Made by a program: the position numbers and the translations under genes. A stretch of 64,000 nucleotides of DNA from an uncultured Verrucomicrobiae bacterium. Lineage in GTDB: Bacteria; Chlamydiota; Chlamydiia; Chlamydiales; Rhabdochlamydiaceae. The stretch covers positions 32,001 through 96,000 of the forward strand of contig OY970364.1 in assembly GCA_963718565.1 (NCBI GenBank), in the 5' to 3' direction. Below, in pieces: positions 2,624 to 63,300 of this stretch (its first letter is position 1; every line of letters begins with the position of its first letter). Below the pieces are notes generated by a model. It made no database searches, was not told where the DNA came from, and worked only from the letters and a program-made list of their open reading frames with translations.

Positions 2624-2695
2624 GAGGGAATTGCAAAACTCCTCGCCGCATAAAATCATCGATTTTCTGCTGACGAGGAGTTTTGCAATTCCCTC
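2624..2695. mobile_element. Palindromic MITE family A, 72 bp
   Basis: Perfect 22-bp TIR GAGGGAATTGCAAAACTCCTCG; 4-bp direct repeat TAAA at 2620-2623 and 2696-2699. Confidence 0.85.
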
Positions 2696-5523: not shown

Positions 5524-6390
5524 TCAGGTTAAAATTTCGTGTCCATCTTCTGTGATGAGAAGGGTGTGTTCCCATTGCGCGCTCGGCTTTCCGTCTTTTG
5601 TGCGCGCTGTCCAATGGTCGTATGGGTCGACATAGCCTTCGCGTACGCCAGCATTGATCATTGGCTCAATAGTGAAAGTCATTCCGGTGGCAAGCGGAAT
5701 TTTAATCTGATTGTAGTGATGGGGGATTTGCGGCGGCTCATGAAAATGAACGCCTGTTCCATGGCCGACAAATAGATTGACGACGGAGCAGCCTTGCCCC
5801 GTCGCGTAAGATTCAATGACATTGCCAATTTCGTAAATCATGACACCGGGCTTCAAAATGGCAATCGATCGCATGAGGCATTCATAGGACACATTCACCA
5901 CTTTTTGTTTTTCAGCATCGACTGTGCCAATGGTGACCATCCGGCTACAGTCTCCGTAATAACCGTTGAGAATGCAGGTCACATCGATATTGACAATGTC
6001 CCCCTCTTTGAGAGGAGTTTCATCCGGAATGCCGTGGCAGATGACGTCATTTAAAGAAGTACAAATGCTTTTGGGAAAGGGAGGATTCCCATAGCCAAGG
6101 GGAGCGGGAATGGTGCCCGCCTCGAGATGGAGTTGATGGGCGTAGGCATTGAGGGCATTTGTGGTCACTCCTGGTTTGGCCATTTTGCACGTTTTATCCA
6201 GGATTTGGGCTGCTAATTTACAAGAGCGTCGAATGCCCCGGATCTGTTCTGCAGTCTTTAAAAGGATCCCATATTTTTTTAGATACTGCTCTGAGAGGAA
6301 GGATGGCGATCCTGGTCCAGGATTTGGGAAATGACATTTTTTCCATTTTTGTCCACTTCCGCACCAACAGAGATCATTTCGAGAAACCAT
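5524..6390 (-). CDS. map: Methionine aminopeptidase with an N-terminal SEC-C motif
   Basis: RNDLCWCGSGQKWKKCH; ICHGIP, DVT, GDCSR, GHG.G..FHE, EPM, QWEHT. Confidence 0.95.
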   Translation of the reverse strand: MVSRNDLCWCGSGQKWKKCHFPNPGPGSPSFLSEQYLKKYGILLKTAEQIRGIRRSCKLAAQILDKTCKMAKPGVTTNALNAYAHQLHLEAGTIPAPLGYGNPPFPKSICTSLNDVICHGIPDETPLKEGDIVNIDVTCILNGYYGDCSRMVTIGTVDAEKQKVVNVSYECLMRSIAILKPGVMIYEIGNVIESYATGQGCSVVNLFVGHGTGVHFHEPPQIPHHYNQIKIPLATGMTFTIEPMINAGVREGYVDPYDHWTARTKDGKPSAQWEHTLLITEDGHEILT

Positions 6391-6405
6391 GAATTTACAC
6401 TCAGG

Positions 6406-7170
6406 TTAATAACACACACGTTTCAAAATTAAGCCATGCGCAGGGGCGGTGATGCCAGCTAAGGTACGGTCTTTGCTTGCCAAGATCATCGGGATTTGAT
6501 CTGCCTTGATCTTTCCGCATCCCACGTAAGCAAGGGTCCCTGCGATATTACGCGCCATTCTAAATAGAAAATGATCGCCCGTCATACAAATGTTAAGACG
6601 GTTTTCAGAATGAAAGAGAATTTCAGTGTTCTCGATTCGGCAAATCGGATCGCGGTCCCACAGGGAGCGCTCATTGCAAAAGGCCGAAAAATCATAAGTG
6701 CCGATGAGGTATTCTGCGGCTTTTCTCATCTTTTCGATATCTAAAAAATATGGGAAGTGCCAGGAAGTATGACGGAGAAATGGCAGCTGCAAAAATCCAT
6801 GGCAAATCTGATACCTATATTCTTTTTTCACACAAGAAAGCGTGGGATGGAAATCCTCGCGCATCTCTTCAGCGCTGACAACGGCGATTTCTTTAGGGAG
6901 CATTCCGGGGGAATTGCAATTCCCTCTTCCATTTAAACTAGACTGCAAGGACTTTAAACAAAGAACTTTTGAAGTCATGAAATTGACGACTTGTCCTTCG
7001 GCGTGGACTCCCGCATCAGTGCGGCTAGCAGCTTGAAGCTTGATTTCATGTTGAAGGATTTGCCGAAGAGCCTTTTCTAAAGTTTCCTCAATACTCGGCC
7101 CCATTTTGGTTTTTTGCCAACCCACAAAAGAGGCACCGAAATAGGTAATGACGAGTTTAATATTAGACAT
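6406..7170 (-). CDS. truA: tRNA pseudouridine(38-40) synthase TruA carrying an 8-aa in-frame insertion
   Basis: SRTDAGVHA and TAPAHGL; start MSNIKLVI overlaps the marC stop (TAATG). Confidence 0.93.
   Translation of the reverse strand: MSNIKLVITYFGASFVGWQKTKMGPSIEETLEKALRQILQHEIKLQAASRTDAGVHAEGQVVNFMTSKVLCLKSLQSSLNGRGNCNSPGMLPKEIAVVSAEEMREDFHPTLSCVKKEYRYQICHGFLQLPFLRHTSWHFPYFLDIEKMRKAAEYLIGTYDFSAFCNERSLWDRDPICRIENTEILFHSENRLNICMTGDHFLFRMARNIAGTLAYVGCGKIKADQIPMILASKDRTLAGITAPAHGLILKRVCY
6907..6926. mobile_element. Collapsed family A footprint, in frame within truA
   Basis: GGGGGAATTGCAATTCCCTC flanked by TTCC at 6903-6906 and 6927-6930; net +24 bp. Confidence 0.8.
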
Positions 7171-7997
7171 TACTTGGAAACGTAGTTTATACCGAAACAA
7201 CATGAAGAATCGGTTTTTGGCTGCGCTGGACATCCCAGATTTTGATCCCGGCTGCATCTCACAACTTGTTCAGTGTGCCTGCTTCCCTGACAAAAGAGCA
7301 ATCGTGCTCTTTTGTAAGTGTCCGCAGCGCCGCCGCTTCGCTGGTTCAAACTCCGGGCGCCAGCTTTGCCAAAATCTCGATTCTTCATGTTGTTTCGGTA
7401 TACGAACATATCGGTTCCTTCGAGGAACATCTGCACAGCGATCAACGTCAAGATTAGGCCCATCAATCTTTCACAAGCGACAAGGCCGCGCCATCCTAAA
7501 AGTTTCTTCCATAAAGAAGAACTGAGCAAAATCAGTGTCGAGGCTGCCCACGCAATGACGATAGCGCACAGAGGGAGCATTAAATCATTGTTGTGCTGGC
7601 CTGAATAGAGCATGACAGCGGCCAAAACCGCAGGACCAGCAACTAGAGGGGTTGCCAATGGAACGATGAAGGGTTCTTTATCGTGGGGAAGTTCAACGTC
7701 TGGATCTCTTCTACCCGGGAAAATCATTTTTAAAGCGATGAGGAAGAGAATGATTCCTCCTGAGATGAGGATTGTCGGCATTGTGACGTTGAGAAAACCG
7801 AGCAAAGCATCACCGATAAAATAGAACAGGATGATGATGATGAGCGCAATGATGAGTTCGCGGATAATGATTTTGTGATGTCGGCTCGCATCAATGTCTT
7901 TTAGTACCGAAACAAAAATTGGGACGTTTCCGATGGGATCCATCAGCAAAAAAAGCGCAAGCGCCATTGAGAACATATGCATCCACCAGGAGTCCAT
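7170..7997 (-). CDS. marC: MarC family membrane protein with a 71-aa in-frame MITE insertion near the C-terminus
   Basis: MDPIGN.P, PFIVPLATPLVAGP, ERLMGLIL. Confidence 0.9.
   Translation of the reverse strand: MDSWWMHMFSMALALFLLMDPIGNVPIFVSVLKDIDASRHHKIIIRELIIALIIIILFYFIGDALLGFLNVTMPTILISGGIILFLIALKMIFPGRRDPDVELPHDKEPFIVPLATPLVAGPAVLAAVMLYSGQHNNDLMLPLCAIVIAWAASTLILLSSSLWKKLLGWRGLVACERLMGLILTLIAVQMFLEGTDMFVYRNNMKNRDFGKAGARSLNQRSGGAADTYKRARLLFCQGSRHTEQVVRCSRDQNLGCPAQPKTDSSCCFGINYVSK
7190..7400. mobile_element. Palindromic MITE family E, 211 bp, IS630-type with TA target
   Basis: Perfect TIR TACCGAAACAACATGAAGAATCG at both ends; TA at 7188-7189 and 7401-7402; internal 11-bp hairpin at 7290-7315. 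Confidence 0.9.
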
Positions 7998-13822: not shown

Positions 13823-14705
13823 TGAGGCGCTTTTCGCTATGAGAATAGAGTTCTGGATGATATTTTCGTAAGAAGCGAGATAAGCGTTGTGTTTTGTTGA
13901 TGATTTCTTTTTTATAATTGCTGGGATTTTTTACTGTCTCATCGTAATCAAAGGAGCTTAAGTCTAACGTGACGGCTTTCTCATCTATAAACCCAAAGTT
14001 ATTTCTTAAGGAATGGTCGTAATCGCGGAGGCCTTGTTTACAAAGGGTGAGAAGGCAATTGAGAAAATCGTCAATACATTGTTTAGCTTCGTCCATTTTC
14101 TTTTGTTTTGATAGGTATTGCAGATGCGGAAAGAGAAGATCAGCCCTTTTTTGAACCACGAATTCCGTTTTGTCCAAGTCAATGGTATGGTGGATGCCAA
14201 TATTGTCGATCAAGGTCACGGGCTTATGTTTGCCTTGCGTCTTGTTTAAATGGACATAGAGAATTCCTGACCGCTCTTTTGCTTGGGTATAGAGCAGCAT
14301 ACAGCTTTTAAAATTGAATTCTTGAAAATAAGGAACATTTTGAGGCCAAGGGTCGCTCTGGAGAAAGAGTTTTTTAAATGAAAATTTCTTAAAGAAGGAA
14401 GAGAGAAGGAGATGCGAGTGCTTATAGAATTTGAGAACAGTGTGTTGATCTTCTCCCAAAAAGGCAAAGCACCAACCTCCAGATCCTAAAAAAGTAAAGG
14501 ATTGGCCGAGAAGTTTGTCGATATTTTTTTGTTCTTCATCAGTCAGTGGGGGCGCTTCCCAACGCGGTTCATTGGGAAGATTGGATAGGATTAGATAGGG
14601 GCGGAATCCATGCGTTTGCTTTAGACAAAACAAATAGAGACCTGTAAATAAGGTTGACAATATTAAAAAATAAAAAGAGATGCGCACTGTTTTTTTGAGG
14701 ACCAT
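13788..14705 (-). CDS. Membrane-anchored protein with a kinase-like fold, paralog 2
   Basis: FLGSGG..FAF, VLKF, D....NFG, LDLS; similar to the adjacent ORF. Confidence 0.65.
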   Translation of the reverse strand: MVLKKTVRISFYFLILSTLFTGLYLFCLKQTHGFRPYLILSNLPNEPRWEAPPLTDEEQKNIDKLLGQSFTFLGSGGWCFAFLGEDQHTVLKFYKHSHLLLSSFFKKFSFKKLFLQSDPWPQNVPYFQEFNFKSCMLLYTQAKERSGILYVHLNKTQGKHKPVTLIDNIGIHHTIDLDKTEFVVQKRADLLFPHLQYLSKQKKMDEAKQCIDDFLNCLLTLCKQGLRDYDHSLRNNFGFIDEKAVTLDLSSFDYDETVKNPSNYKKEIINKTQRLSRFLRKYHPELYSHSEKRLNEIMEIDALEE

Positions 14706-14706
14706 A

Positions 14707-15826
14707 TACTCTAGAAAATTGAAGTCTGGAGAGGATTGAGTTCAATTGTTTGGAAATTGTCGTTAATTCGCTTTTTCAGCATGTCTTTTAAATTAATAAC
14801 GCCAGTGTTGAAAAAATCTCTAATTTTCTCAGTAAATTCATTGAATTTTGAATACAGTGTATTATAAGTAACACACTCTCTCATAACTTTCCATAAACGC
14901 TCAATAGCATTCAAATTTGGGGAATACGGAGGTAAGTAGTGTATTTGAATTTTGGTTTGGCTATCCAAATATTTTTGCACTTCCTTATTCTTGTTTGATC
15001 TGCCGTTGTCTAAGATTAAGTGGATTTTTTTTGCATCTGTATTAGCCGCTAACGTTTGGAGAAAATCGACCGCACTTGCAGCATCCACAGTGCTATATTC
15101 CTTCGTCACGACTTGCATTGCAGTCAATTCAATGGCACCAATAAAATGCAATCGCTCTTGCTTAGCGGTTGTTCCTAATGTCTTTATTTCGTTTTTTAGG
15201 ATCCACCCAGCCACAGACTGGCTCTGATACTCAGGGTGTACAGCATCTCCAAAGAAAATTTTCTCGCCTTCTTGGAGACCGGCTTTCAATTCATTGTATT
15301 TTTTAAGGAACGCAGCTTGTTTTTCGGGATCGAGCTTTCCTGGTACTTTGATTGGATGTTTATAAACAAATCCATGCCTCTTCAACCAATTTGTCATACC
15401 AGCCACAGTGTATTTCACTTGATATGCGTCTAGAACGTAGAGACAAATTTTGCTCATTTTGAGATACGTTATTTGACTCAAATGTCTCCTCAGCGCATCT
15501 TCTTGGTCTAGGGTTAACTTGGAGGCCTTTCCCAAATGTGGATCATTGATAGTTTTTTGCTTGGCATCGTATTCTCTTTGATAATCATAAACGGACGACT
15601 CGCTAATTCTTAAAATCGCCGCTATTTCCCCTGGACTGTGGCAATCATCCCTACCTAAAATGACGCATACACGGTTCCGTTCGTTGACATCTCTTGTTTT
15701 TTTTACAAGCTGTTCTAAATATAAACGCTGCTCATTGGACAACTTTTGCATAGAAGCATTATCCACTATCGCTGAAATATTTTTTAGGGAAATTTAAAAT
15801 TTTACAGAATCCAATCATGAATAGTA
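14707..15826 (-). mobile_element. IS630 family element, intact copy 1 (1120 bp)
   Basis: Ends TACTATTCATGATTGG and TACTCTAGAAAATTGA flanked by TA; near-identical to the copy at 54849. Confidence 0.93.
14711..15766 (-). CDS. IS630 transposase
   Basis: FGDAVHP, LILDNG, YLPPYSPNLNAIERLW. Confidence 0.93.
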   Translation of the reverse strand: MDNASMQKLSNEQRLYLEQLVKKTRDVNERNRVCVILGRDDCHSPGEIAAILRISESSVYDYQREYDAKQKTINDPHLGKASKLTLDQEDALRRHLSQITYLKMSKICLYVLDAYQVKYTVAGMTNWLKRHGFVYKHPIKVPGKLDPEKQAAFLKKYNELKAGLQEGEKIFFGDAVHPEYQSQSVAGWILKNEIKTLGTTAKQERLHFIGAIELTAMQVVTKEYSTVDAASAVDFLQTLAANTDAKKIHLILDNGRSNKNKEVQKYLDSQTKIQIHYLPPYSPNLNAIERLWKVMRECVTYNTLYSKFNEFTEKIRDFFNTGVINLKDMLKKRINDNFQTIELNPLQTSIF

Positions 15827-15845
15827 TATACTGCAACCATTATTT

Positions 15846-54686: not shown

Positions 54687-55089
54687 TTAATGTACGTGCT
54701 ACCAGTCAAGGTGTGGCCGGAGAAGCCAAGGAACAGCTGAATAGCTTAAGGGTTGAAGGCAAACAGCTGCGACAGCAATGCATTGAAGCGGGATTGGTTG
54801 GTTTTATCAGCTTGGAAGCATGTTGGTAAGGCAGAGGTGCATGAACTATACTATTCATGATTGGATTCTGTAAAATTTTAAATTTCCCTAAAAAATATTT
54901 CAGCGATAGTGGATAATGCTTCTATGCAAAAGTTGTCCAATGAGCAGCGTTTATATTTAGAACAGCTTGTAAAAAAAACAAGAGATGTCAACGAACGGAA
55001 CCGTGTATGCGTCATTTTAGGTAGGGATGATTGCCACAGTCCAGGGGAAATAGCGGCGATTTTAAGAATTAGCGAGTCGTCCGTTTATG

Positions 55090-56390
55090 CAGGGCCATTT
55101 AACTAAAATGTTTTGACATTTTCGAACAGAAAAATGTTGCCAAAATTCCCTTTAAGTACCCACCACCGAAAGTTGCTGCGCGCCTTACGGAGGCGAGCCC
55201 CCTTTCTGGATCTACAACTGCAGCCATGTTCATAGCCAAACGTCGAAACAACCCCATGTTCTCCGCACTATTCCCTCTATCCGTCAATGCATAATCCTCT
55301 TCAAAAATCACATCAGCTACCCAATGGCATTTGTTTTCTATGCTCCAGTGCTGTCGGGTCCATTTAGCAAAATCTTTGGCAGATGCTCGACGACTCGAAA
55401 TATATAGCCGTCTAAATACCTCATTGGCAGTAGATCCAAGTTTTTGCCTCGTGGACCTTACTTCGATGAGACAGACTAAGTTTTTCCATTTGCCCGCATT
55501 TGGCAACCAGTCCAGGTCCTCGACGACTCGTACTTCTCGAATGTCGATTCGACCATGGCCTTTATCTACTTCCTGGTGAAACGAATGGGGGACTTCCTCC
55601 CATTCGACTGCGTGAGCTTGATCAAAAAAATTCTCCATTTCAGCGCACAGCGTTGGCTGGTTGTCCTTAACAGCCAGCAGATAATCTGCCTTCGCATCAA
55701 CGATTTGTTCTGCCGATTCGGCTACGGTGAAATGTGCATCTCCTGAAATAATCGCCCCCTCTACATTCACTTGCTCCAAAATGATTGGTAACGTGCTCTT
55801 TTCGACTGTTTTATTTGGGACCTTTTCCACGGCAAGACATAATCGATCCTCCGCTGCGAATAGCTCCACTACGTGTGTGACACCGCCTAGGAAATTTGCG
55901 CCTTTCATCCGTTTACCATCGATCGCCAATAGCTGATCGCGCAATGAAGCAGGAATTTTGCTGAACCATTTTTGCAAGTAGTGCTTGAGCGCACCAGGGG
56001 GTGTTTTCACTAAAAACCACCAGAGCGCTCCATGGGAAGGTGCTGAGAGCTCCTCACCTAGCAGAGAAGAAAACCACTCCTCCTGCAGAGAAACATATTC
56101 AGCGATTTCCTCAATCGTATTGCATCCACAAAAGAATCCGCAGAGAATAACAAGAGTCAAATACCAAACTGGATATAAGACACGTTTTTGATTACGTCGA
56201 TAATCAGGGAAATCTGCAAACTCTCCCTTGACGGTTTCCGCGAATACACGGGCATCAAAATTCTTACTAGCTTCTAGGATTGTGGCGTCGATTGGCTTAC
56301 GGCGTGACATAATAGGTCCTCCAAATTTGAGGAATTTATTATGCCATCTTAGCTGATCTGGTATCAAAAATTTTTAGTTAAATGGCCCTG
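55090..56390 (-). mobile_element. ISAs1 family element (1301 bp)
   Basis: 19-bp TIR CAGGGCCATTTAACTAAAA; 10-bp TSD TCCGTTTATG at 55080-55089 and 56391-56400. Confidence 0.95.
55099..56310 (-). CDS. ISAs1 transposase
   Basis: AIDGK, GDA, K.NQPTL, GHGRI..R, HWSIEN..HW..D..F.ED. Confidence 0.93.
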   Translation of the reverse strand: MSRRKPIDATILEASKNFDARVFAETVKGEFADFPDYRRNQKRVLYPVWYLTLVILCGFFCGCNTIEEIAEYVSLQEEWFSSLLGEELSAPSHGALWWFLVKTPPGALKHYLQKWFSKIPASLRDQLLAIDGKRMKGANFLGGVTHVVELFAAEDRLCLAVEKVPNKTVEKSTLPIILEQVNVEGAIISGDAHFTVAESAEQIVDAKADYLLAVKDNQPTLCAEMENFFDQAHAVEWEEVPHSFHQEVDKGHGRIDIREVRVVEDLDWLPNAGKWKNLVCLIEVRSTRQKLGSTANEVFRRLYISSRRASAKDFAKWTRQHWSIENKCHWVADVIFEEDYALTDRGNSAENMGLFRRLAMNMAAVVDPERGLASVRRAATFGGGYLKGILATFFCSKMSKHFS

Positions 56391-57281
56391 TCCGTTTATG
56401 ATTATCAAAGAGAATACGATGCCAAGCAAAAAACTATCAATGGTCCACATTTGGGAAAGGCCTCCAAGTTAACCCTAGACCAAGAAGATGCGCTGAGGAG
56501 ACATTTGAGTCAAATAACGTATCTCAAAATGAGCAAAATTTGTCTCTACGTTCTAGACGCATATCAAGTGAAATACACTGTGGCTGGTATGACAAATTGG
56601 TTGAAGAGGCATGGATTTGTTTATAAACATCCAATCAAAGTACCAGGAAAGCTCGATCCCGAAAAACAAGCTGCGTTCCTTAAAAAATACAATGAATTGA
56701 AAGCCGGTCTCCAAGAAGGCGAGAAAATTTTCTTTGGAGATGCTGTACACCCTGAGTATCAGAGCCAGTCTGTGGCTGGGTGGATCCTAAAAAACGAAAT
56801 AAAGACATTAGGAACAACCGCTAAGCAAGAGCGATTGCATTTTATTGGTGCCATTGAATTGACTGCAATGCAAGTCGTGACGAAGGAATATAGCACTGTG
56901 GATGCTGCAAGTGCGGTCGATTTTCTCCAAACGTTAGCGGCTAATACAGATGCAAAAAAAATCCACTTAATCTTAGACAACGGCAGATCAAACAAGAATA
57001 AGGAAGTGCAAAAATATTTGGATAGCCAAACCAAAATTCAAATACACTACTTACCTCCGTATTCCCCAAATTTGAATGCTATTGAGCGTTTATGGAAAGT
57101 TATGAGAGAGTGTGTTACTTATAATACACTGTATTCAAAATTCAATGAATTTACTGAGAAAATTAGAGATTTTTTCAACACTGGCGTTATTAATTTAAAA
57201 GACATGCTGAAAAAGCGAATTAACGACAATTTCCAAACAATTGAACTCAATCCTCTCCAGACTTCAATTTTCTAGAGTATA

Positions 57282-57437
57282 TACTATTCATGATTGGATT
57301 CTGTAAAATTTTAAATTTCCCTAAAAAATATTTCAGCGATAGTGGATAATGCTTCTATGCAAGAGTTGTCCAATGAGCAGCGTTTATATTTAGAACAGCT
57401 TGTAAAAAAAACAAGAGATGTCAACGAACGGAACCGT
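57282..57437 (+). mobile_element. IS630 copy 3, a 156-bp left-end fragment joined head-to-tail to copy 2
   Basis: Matches the copy 2 left end (one SNP) and follows a shared TA at 57280-57281. Confidence 0.9.
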
Positions 57438-62644: not shown

Positions 62645-62745
62645 AACAGTTTCTTTTCCCAAAAGTGGTTGAAAAGCCCCTTTTTGTTTTTTAGAATCAA
62701 TTATAAGAGGGAATTGCAAAACTAACGCGAAAAGGACATTTTTTC

Positions 62746-62876
62746 GTACGTCCTTAAAAACTCATGGCAAAAGTTGAAGACCATTTTGATCCATGCCTGA
62801 TTGAGATCGATAAATGCAAAGCCTGGCATGGATCCAAATGATATTCAGTGCTTGCCATAGGTTTTTGAGGATGTAC
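62746..62876. mobile_element. Family C MITE, complete (131 bp)
   Basis: Ends GTACGTCCTTAAAAAC and GTTTTTGAGGATGTAC; 8-bp TSD ATTTTTTC at 62738-62745 and 62877-62884. Confidence 0.88.
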
Positions 62877-62935
62877 ATTTTTTCGGGGTCTTATTTGCTA
62901 AAACCTGTTTCAGACCCGAAAAACCATCCTTAGTT

Positions 62936-63051
62936 GTAACAAGCTGCTGCTGCTTTTCCGTCAACGGATCAAGCTGTTCTTCCAGCTGAGGAAAAAGTGT
63001 TTCTTGAATTTTGCTCCAATACTGTGATAACGTAGCTGCCAATTGACTCAT
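62936..63051 (-). pseudogene. Transposase N-terminal remnant (probably IS5/IS1182-like)
   Basis: MSQLAATLSQYWSKIQETLFPQLEEQLDPLTEKQQQLV resembles DDE transposase N-termini and lies inside the TIRs. Confidence 0.6.
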
Positions 63052-63300
63052 TTGAGTTGTCCCTTTGGCTGATGTGGTTTGTTTTCCAAGAAGATATCAT
63101 ATCAGCCATAAGGATTTTTGCATTGGTAAATGGAGGCAGAATCGCAGCCATTTTTCGAGCGAATTGCGAGATTGACAAAATGGGGTGATTTCCTGGGGGA
63201 GATTAAGCTGATTAGCTAAATAATTTCCCCCAGGAAATCACCCCGTTTTGTTAGTTTTGCAATTCGCTCATAAAATAAGCCTAAAACTCAGGTTGGAAAA

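Follow-up and report, generated by a model that had tools for sequence, protein, structure and literature searches.

Rickettsia palindromic elements (RPE; Ogata et al. 2000) are small, palindromic, non-autonomous repeats of an obligate intracellular bacterium. In the part of the review PMC10969869 that describes them, they lie in frame in conserved housekeeping genes, are translated, and are absent from orthologues. The insertion analysed here lies in truA of a Rhabdochlamydiaceae genome. Judged by insertion behaviour against those descriptions of RPE, it resembles them, as do insertions in an rluD-like gene, mutY and an rluA-like gene of the same genome. By analogy, the truA insertion is an RPE-like phenomenon in Rhabdochlamydiaceae. 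It differs from RPE in that the host phylum is Chlamydiota and in that its repeat family, here called family A, shows clear 4-bp duplications and can be traced to an IS5/IS1182-like parent. In truA, moreover, the copy is a 20-bp remnant giving eight amino acids, not a whole element of about 150 bp. What is less usual here is that 20-bp remnants form a class and have become fixed in enzymes.

In 'nearly precise excision' of Tn10, short repeats within the inverted terminal repeats are reportedly the end-points of a deletion that needs no transposase. The deletion is said to keep the target duplication and to leave a small palindromic remnant of both ends, about 50 bp long, as a laboratory reversion event. 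The truA remnant likewise joins both ends at TTGCAA within the inverted repeats and keeps GGAA on both sides, whereas the family A remnant measures 20 bp, has become fixed within coding regions, and is present at about 24 genome sites and at 23 loci in metagenomes. In Aedes, microhomology-mediated internal deletions miniaturise Tc1/mariner transposons into MITEs, a eukaryotic process that the relevant part of PMC3814204 ascribes to gap repair after excision. Family A derivatives shrink in a comparable way, with junction microhomology and both ends kept, and form a size series of 1575 (the parent, in a related genome), 563, 258, 182, 72 and 20 bp. Unlike the Aedes MITEs described in that part of the source, the end-point of family A is far smaller than any MITE expected to move. 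No paper on chlamydial MITEs was found by title in the literature searched, and the main genomic paper on Rhabdochlamydiaceae discusses transposases without using the word MITE.

A 24-bp insertion in truA

The window, a stretch of 64,000 nucleotides, carries truA (tRNA pseudouridine38-40 synthase) at 6406..7170 on the minus strand, an ORF whose translation gives 254 amino acids plus a stop. Positions 6903-6930 read TTCCGGGGGAATTGCAATTCCCTCTTCC on the plus strand and GGAA-GAGGGAATTGCAATTCCCCC-GGAA on the coding (minus) strand. The inner 20 bp (6907..6926, a palindromic family A MITE remnant to which no strand is assigned; plus strand GGGGGAATTGCAATTCCCTC) have 1 mismatch to the class consensus GAGGGAATTGCAATTCCCTC and consist of the two terminal 13-mers of family A, overlapping at TTGCAA. 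They are flanked by a 4-bp target duplication, GGAA on the minus strand (TTCC on the plus strand), with the 5' copy in the coding direction at 6927..6930 and the 3' copy at 6903..6906. The initial annotation had described fused family A termini with a 4-bp duplication at this place, and both the letters and the flanking GGAA are as it described.

Together, the 20 bp and the 4-bp duplication amount to 24 bp, or eight codons. The codons at the insert are AAT GGA AGA GGG AAT TGC AAT TCC CCC GGA ATG (N-G-R-G-N-C-N-S-P-G-M), and the protein context is ...SLQSSLN-GRGNCNSP-GMLPKEI, in which the extra residues are RGNCNSPG (residues 82-89). Since the palindrome is free of stop codons in every frame, the scar is translated as eight extra residues. 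Removal of the 24 bp gives SLN-GMLPKEI, the canonical TruA segment that had been anticipated from the sequence.

The initial annotation had named as contrary evidence any orthologue that has the eight residues although its genome lacks family A. RGNCNSPG is absent from all 29 truA orthologues aligned from related genomes and from all 115 further TruA homologues taken from a collection of 5.8 billion proteins. In the nearest orthologue (83% identity) the site reads AGT TTA AAC GGA ATG, an empty site with a single GGAA. The collections searched held no truA allele of the same species, the best match among the 5.8 billion proteins being 80-83% identical. The comparison supports a lineage-specific insertion of the 24 bp, later than the split from the nearest sampled relative, and it is close to certain that the insert derives from a family A insertion.

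The remaining readings of the site are that the eight residues form an ancestral or convergent loop with a chance likeness to family A, or that the 24 bp are an assembly artefact. Both are exceedingly improbable, given the match to the repeat class at 19 of 20 positions with an exact 4-bp duplication and the absence of the residues from every orthologue and homologue compared. As regards an artefact, four metagenome runs were searched, as contigs of one soil study at a depth of 2-4, and the truA site was covered by two of them. Contigs X1 record 2 (6705-7071) and X4 record 17 (6858-7017) cross it without a single difference or gap, which speaks against an artefact of assembly; X1 is possibly the sample of origin.

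A role of the palindrome at the RNA level was considered and dropped. The fold of the region is unexceptional (z -0.82; 38 of 200 shuffles fold equally well), and Rfam gave no match in 6300-7500 of the window, a result that says little about RPE membership. The neighbouring gene marC does bear another MITE-derived tail, as the initial annotation had stated when it called the truA insert the second such peptide. The MITE concerned is a distinct one, located between marC and truA at 7188-7402 and having perfect terminal repeats of 25 bp (TATACCGAAACAACATGAAGAATCG). The end of marC is replaced by this MITE, and the marC ORF is about 70 residues longer (275 amino acids); orthologous MarC proteins end at about 200-205 amino acids.

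Family A and its parent insertion sequence

With up to 1 mismatch allowed, the window contains 13 occurrences of the 11-mer core of the family A end (GGGAATTGCAA), where 3.06 would be expected; 0 of 100 shuffles gave as many. In the whole genome (G000), a single contig (C1) of 2.28 Mb, the 13-nt end GAGGGAATTGCAA was found 140 times in forward and 131 times in reverse orientation, 271 in all, and the reversed control gave 0. The sequence GAGGGAATTGCAAAACT... and its complement form both ends of the 72-, 182- and 258-bp copies, and ends of 17-18 nt are common to all longer copies and the parent insertion sequence (IS). Pairing of ends resolved size classes of 20 bp (19 copies), about 71 bp (6), 182 bp (22) and 257-259 bp (17), as well as many single sizes. 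A 4-bp direct repeat stands beside most copies in every size class, including 18 of the 22 copies of 182 bp and 12 of the 19 strict 20-bp copies. The 182-bp copies diverge by 2.3% from their own consensus. Family A thus has the features by which MITEs are recognised, namely shared inverted ends, a fixed 4-bp duplication, and many copies at unrelated sites without an inner transposase.

Two further copies lie in the window, neither with an assigned strand. The 72-bp copy at 2624..2695, with family A ends and a duplication of 4 bp, is a deletion derivative whose junction is AAAATC. The 563-bp element at 62707..63269 has family A ends, the duplication ATAA and an ORF fragment, with a match to the parent at G000 94932-95051. 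It contains the first approximately 40 transposase codons of the parent and is therefore a deletion derivative of the autonomous IS.

The parent was found by scanning the genomes of 185,579 species with the 17-nt end. The scan identified a 1575-bp element present in two copies in one Rhabdochlamydiaceae genome, with the same 18-nt ends as family A and 4-bp duplications of AATG and TTTT. It encodes a 390-amino-acid transposase with the Pfam domains DUF772 and DDE_Tnp_1. Like members of the IS5 and IS1182 families, the element combines these two domains with short terminal inverted repeats and a 4-bp duplication. It differs from the curated members in that its transposase scores below both NCBIfam cut-offs (IS1182, 86.7 bits against 270; IS5, 61.5 against 140), so that the family assignment is provisional. 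As judged from these shared ends and domains, the autonomous parent of family A is this IS5/IS1182-like element of about 1.6 kb in a related genome. The genome of the window holds no intact cognate transposase, only eight gene fragments, which indicates that family A is decaying here and is currently orphaned.

This genome has ten multi-copy transposase families, and family A ends border none of them. An ISAs1-like IS was rejected as the parent, since it has ends of its own (CAGGGCC...) and is only nested in the one place where family A ends enclose it. This IS (DDE_Tnp_1_assoc and DDE_Tnp_1) has 11 identical copies in the genome. Its copy at 55090-56390 of the window splits a 1125-bp repeat (54847-57437), of which an intact copy is found at 14704-15828. 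The 17-nt family A end was also detected in genomes labelled Verrucomicrobia, Victivallales, Acidobacteria and others (loci L073-L152), reflecting either a spread across the PVC group and further or mis-binned chlamydial contigs.

The 20-bp class and the origin of the scar

When up to 3 mismatches are allowed, the 20-bp form has 25 matches in the genome, one of which is the end of a full copy, leaving about 24. A duplication of at least 4 bp accompanies 17 of these 25 relaxed matches, compared with 0.9% of random positions. The perfect 16-mer palindrome GGGAATTGCAATTCCC is the most frequent in the genome, accounting for 16 of 100 16-mer palindrome sites. Every one of the 19 strict 20-bp copies corresponds to the full element deleted between its two TTGCAA words, a 6-bp microhomology; the word is self-complementary and thus occurs, once in each terminal repeat, as a direct repeat as well. 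Among the other short derivatives, junction microhomology is AAAATC again for 72 bp, TTTT for 71 bp and TCG for 56 bp, and several others have 0-2 bp. The exact 20-mer was also found in 28 metagenome contigs representing 23 distinct loci, with a 4-bp duplication in 19 of the 28. At only about 75%, the likeness of their flanks to this genome places them in other species.

The explanation that we favour, with a confidence somewhat above even, is that family A inserted at truA, that the copy collapsed between the TTGCAA repeats, and that the scar was retained in a loop. A longer family A element, a non-autonomous relative of the approximately 1.6-kb IS, would have integrated at GGAA within truA codons 80-81. 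Everything between the two TTGCAA words would then have been lost, with the outer 13 nt of each inverted repeat staying behind, overlapped. The deletion may have arisen during replication by a slipped-strand or hairpin-promoted event, as in nearly precise excision of Tn10. It may also have arisen by interrupted gap repair after excision, with the nascent ends annealing at the palindromic TTGCAA. The resulting 24-bp scar would have been kept since it is frame-neutral and lies in a loop. A full-length precursor at the truA site and its collapse are likely, as read from the junction. None of the genomes and read sets examined contained a full-length copy at this site, and we found no usable paralogous sites showing the full and the mini state of one locus.

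Alternatively, the 20-bp palindrome may have entered truA as such, as a minimal mobile unit with two 10-nt ends that was moved in trans and amplified itself. The class is uniform and abundant, as expected of such a unit (about 24 genome copies and 23 metagenome loci, with duplications in 19 of 28 contigs), and its target signature equals that of the longer copies. For 20-bp and longer copies, respectively, T is found at position 1 of the target in 77% and 75% and A at position 4 in 62% and 64%; the AT fraction of the duplicated targets is 0.83 for both. The 20-bp form also outnumbers every other short derivative about tenfold (19-24 copies, against at most three per junction for any other deletion product). 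It is missing from five other genomes bearing family A: the 16-mer core (up to 1 mismatch) has 0 matches in five related genomes with 8-55 family A ends each. Purely spontaneous collapse at an equal rate does not predict that these five family A-bearing genomes lack the 20-bp form. One of the five has two 34-bp remnants whose junctions differ, indicating that collapses occur independently.

Direct entry of the 20-bp form nevertheless seems unlikely. It would leave 10 nt per end, less than the 17-18 nt common to the longer copies and the parent IS. Transposition of IS50/Tn5 has length limits, and by those limits a 20-bp duplex would hardly be able to bring both ends into one transposase complex. 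The uniformity of the class can in turn be accounted for by a recurrent deletion hot spot, since TTGCAA is the longest self-complementary word of the terminal repeat. A point against the collapse model is that the analogous 14-bp product, joined at the 4-bp palindrome AATT, has 0 copies in the genome.

More improbable still is the idea that the 20-bp palindrome is a 'nano-MITE', the smallest form in which the family propagates itself, and that it always adds eight codons together with its 4-bp duplication, is stop-free in all six frames and colonises coding sequence harmlessly. If true, it would explain why this is the commonest short form, why it occurs at 23 metagenome loci and why it is absent from the five family A-bearing genomes.

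Several other palindromes and copies were noted. The 16-mer AAAAGACATGTCTTTT (11 copies) was rejected as a remnant, being located inside an IS. Another perfect 16-bp palindrome, ATACGGCGCGCCGTAT, occupies six sites in G000:C1 (e.g. 1250659 and 1432173), where the flanks are unrelated and a duplication is not evident. Eight 20-bp copies lack a duplication of 4 bp or more; in two of them (G000:C1:998869 and 1426097) the two flanks form an inverted repeat, ccag/ctgg and actgta/tacagt, as though template switching had extended the palindrome. A 20-bp remnant is found upstream of nrdR both in a metagenome contig of a related organism (L196, duplication TTTA) and at G000:C1:2147310 (TCTA), apparently at the same place, as an old shared insertion or a hot spot.

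TruA with eight extra residues and other translated copies

The truA product belongs to Pfam PF01416 (E 5e-27; 94.9 bits against a cut-off of 23.3) and aligns to the E. coli TruA structures 1dj0/2nqp with an E value of 2e-34, the insert appearing as a gap between a helix and the LPxDI strand. Its AF2 model has a mean pLDDT of 94 and superposes on 1dj0_A with a TM score of 0.92 and an rmsd of 1.6 Å. In the model, a helix (72-80) is followed by residues 81-94 without secondary structure and then by a strand (95-103). The pLDDT is 75 in residues 81-90 and 92-98 elsewhere except residues 161-180. The possibility of a loop position had been raised in the initial annotation, and mapping on the model places the insert in the loop between this helix and this strand. 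According to the relevant part of a review (PMC12710931), bacterial TruA dimerises via loops atop the core.

All 35 invariant columns of an alignment of 116 TruA sequences are kept, including the catalytic R50, T51 and D52. The dN/dS of truA against its closest orthologue is 0.125, a value that averages over the time before the insertion as well. TruA bearing the eight extra residues probably still works, as suggested by this conservation and the predicted fold.

It is also conceivable that the insertion has disabled or is disabling TruA. The ORF would then stay open only through the frame-neutrality of the scar, and a second truA paralogue would cover the function. Such a truA-like gene (39% identity) does exist at G000:C1:2262902-2263633. 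Moreover, rluD, rluA and mutY are dispensable in model bacteria, and the other genes with validated in-frame copies, described below, are rluD-like, rluA-like and mutY. Against this stand the intact ORF with its 35 invariant positions, the confidence of the model outside the loop, and the low dN/dS, with the reservation already given on its averaging. The paralogue is moreover no recent backup, since most of the related genomes searched also have two truA matches. Loss of TruA function therefore appears improbable, and we return to the reading in which a working enzyme retains the scar in a loop.

Other translated copies were sought among the 94 family A copies of at most 400 bp, with an open frame of at least 40 codons required on each side. 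An open frame spans nine of them, and four of the nine, including truA, were validated against orthologues. The rluD-like gene (S4 and PseudoU_synth_2) has a 20-bp copy at G000:C1:1426097-1426116, which adds seven residues just before HRLD that are found in 0 of 17 orthologues. No direct repeat flanks this copy. The sequences on either side lengthen the palindrome to 32 bp (actgta...tacagt), and the gene has gained 21 bp in all rather than 24. In mutY (G000:C1:1721238), a 182-bp copy is translated into 62 amino acids in the C-terminal NUDIX-like domain. This block is found in 0 of 5 orthologues, of which one is interrupted by stop codons. In the rluA-like pseudouridine synthase gene (G000:C1:2153441), a 182-bp copy is again translated into 62 amino acids, absent from all 5 orthologues. 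All four genes use one shared reading frame of the element ends (RGNC...CNSL), the 62-residue block being RGNCKTPR...EEFCNSL.

These copies bear on the earlier view of the truA scar as frame-restoring, which did not stand: the full form found most often keeps the frame together with its duplication (182 + 4 = 186 bp), and it is translated within mutY and the rluA-like gene. Length plus 4 is divisible by three for 62 of the 94 copies; counted by distinct length, the number is only 14 of 34, which gives no evidence of selection.

Two other candidates were left out of the count. For a SET-domain gene with a 257-bp copy, orthologues match downstream of the element only, so that the copy is probably 5' of the gene. 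The other is a 375-residue ORF bearing a 20-bp copy; it matched no Pfam family, and 5 genomes yielded no orthologue. Three more 20-bp copies lie at gene ends, at the N-termini of a putative LigT-type 2H phosphoesterase and a putative secretin, both names being read from translations alone, and near the C-terminus of a 274-residue ORF. Pseudouridine synthases make up three of the four validated in-frame insertions, with about seven such genes in the genome, and the fourth is mutY; this enrichment is a post hoc observation. According to the part of PMC7822408 concerned, mutation frequency in Pseudomonas increases when TruA or RluA is lost.

For annotation, the peptides RGNCNSL, RELQFPL and EGIAIPS and the 62-residue block can serve as flags for MITE-derived protein segments in this group, although their practical value is modest. 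The family A size series is a natural record of transposon decay. The truA insertion would illustrate a route by which short loop insertions arise in conserved enzymes: a transposon lands, shrinks to a 20-bp palindrome, and eight new codons stay. As an RPE-like phenomenon, the insertion shows that housekeeping proteins with translated mobile DNA, as in Rickettsia, also occur among environmental chlamydiae, which are obligate intracellular bacteria of a second, unrelated group.
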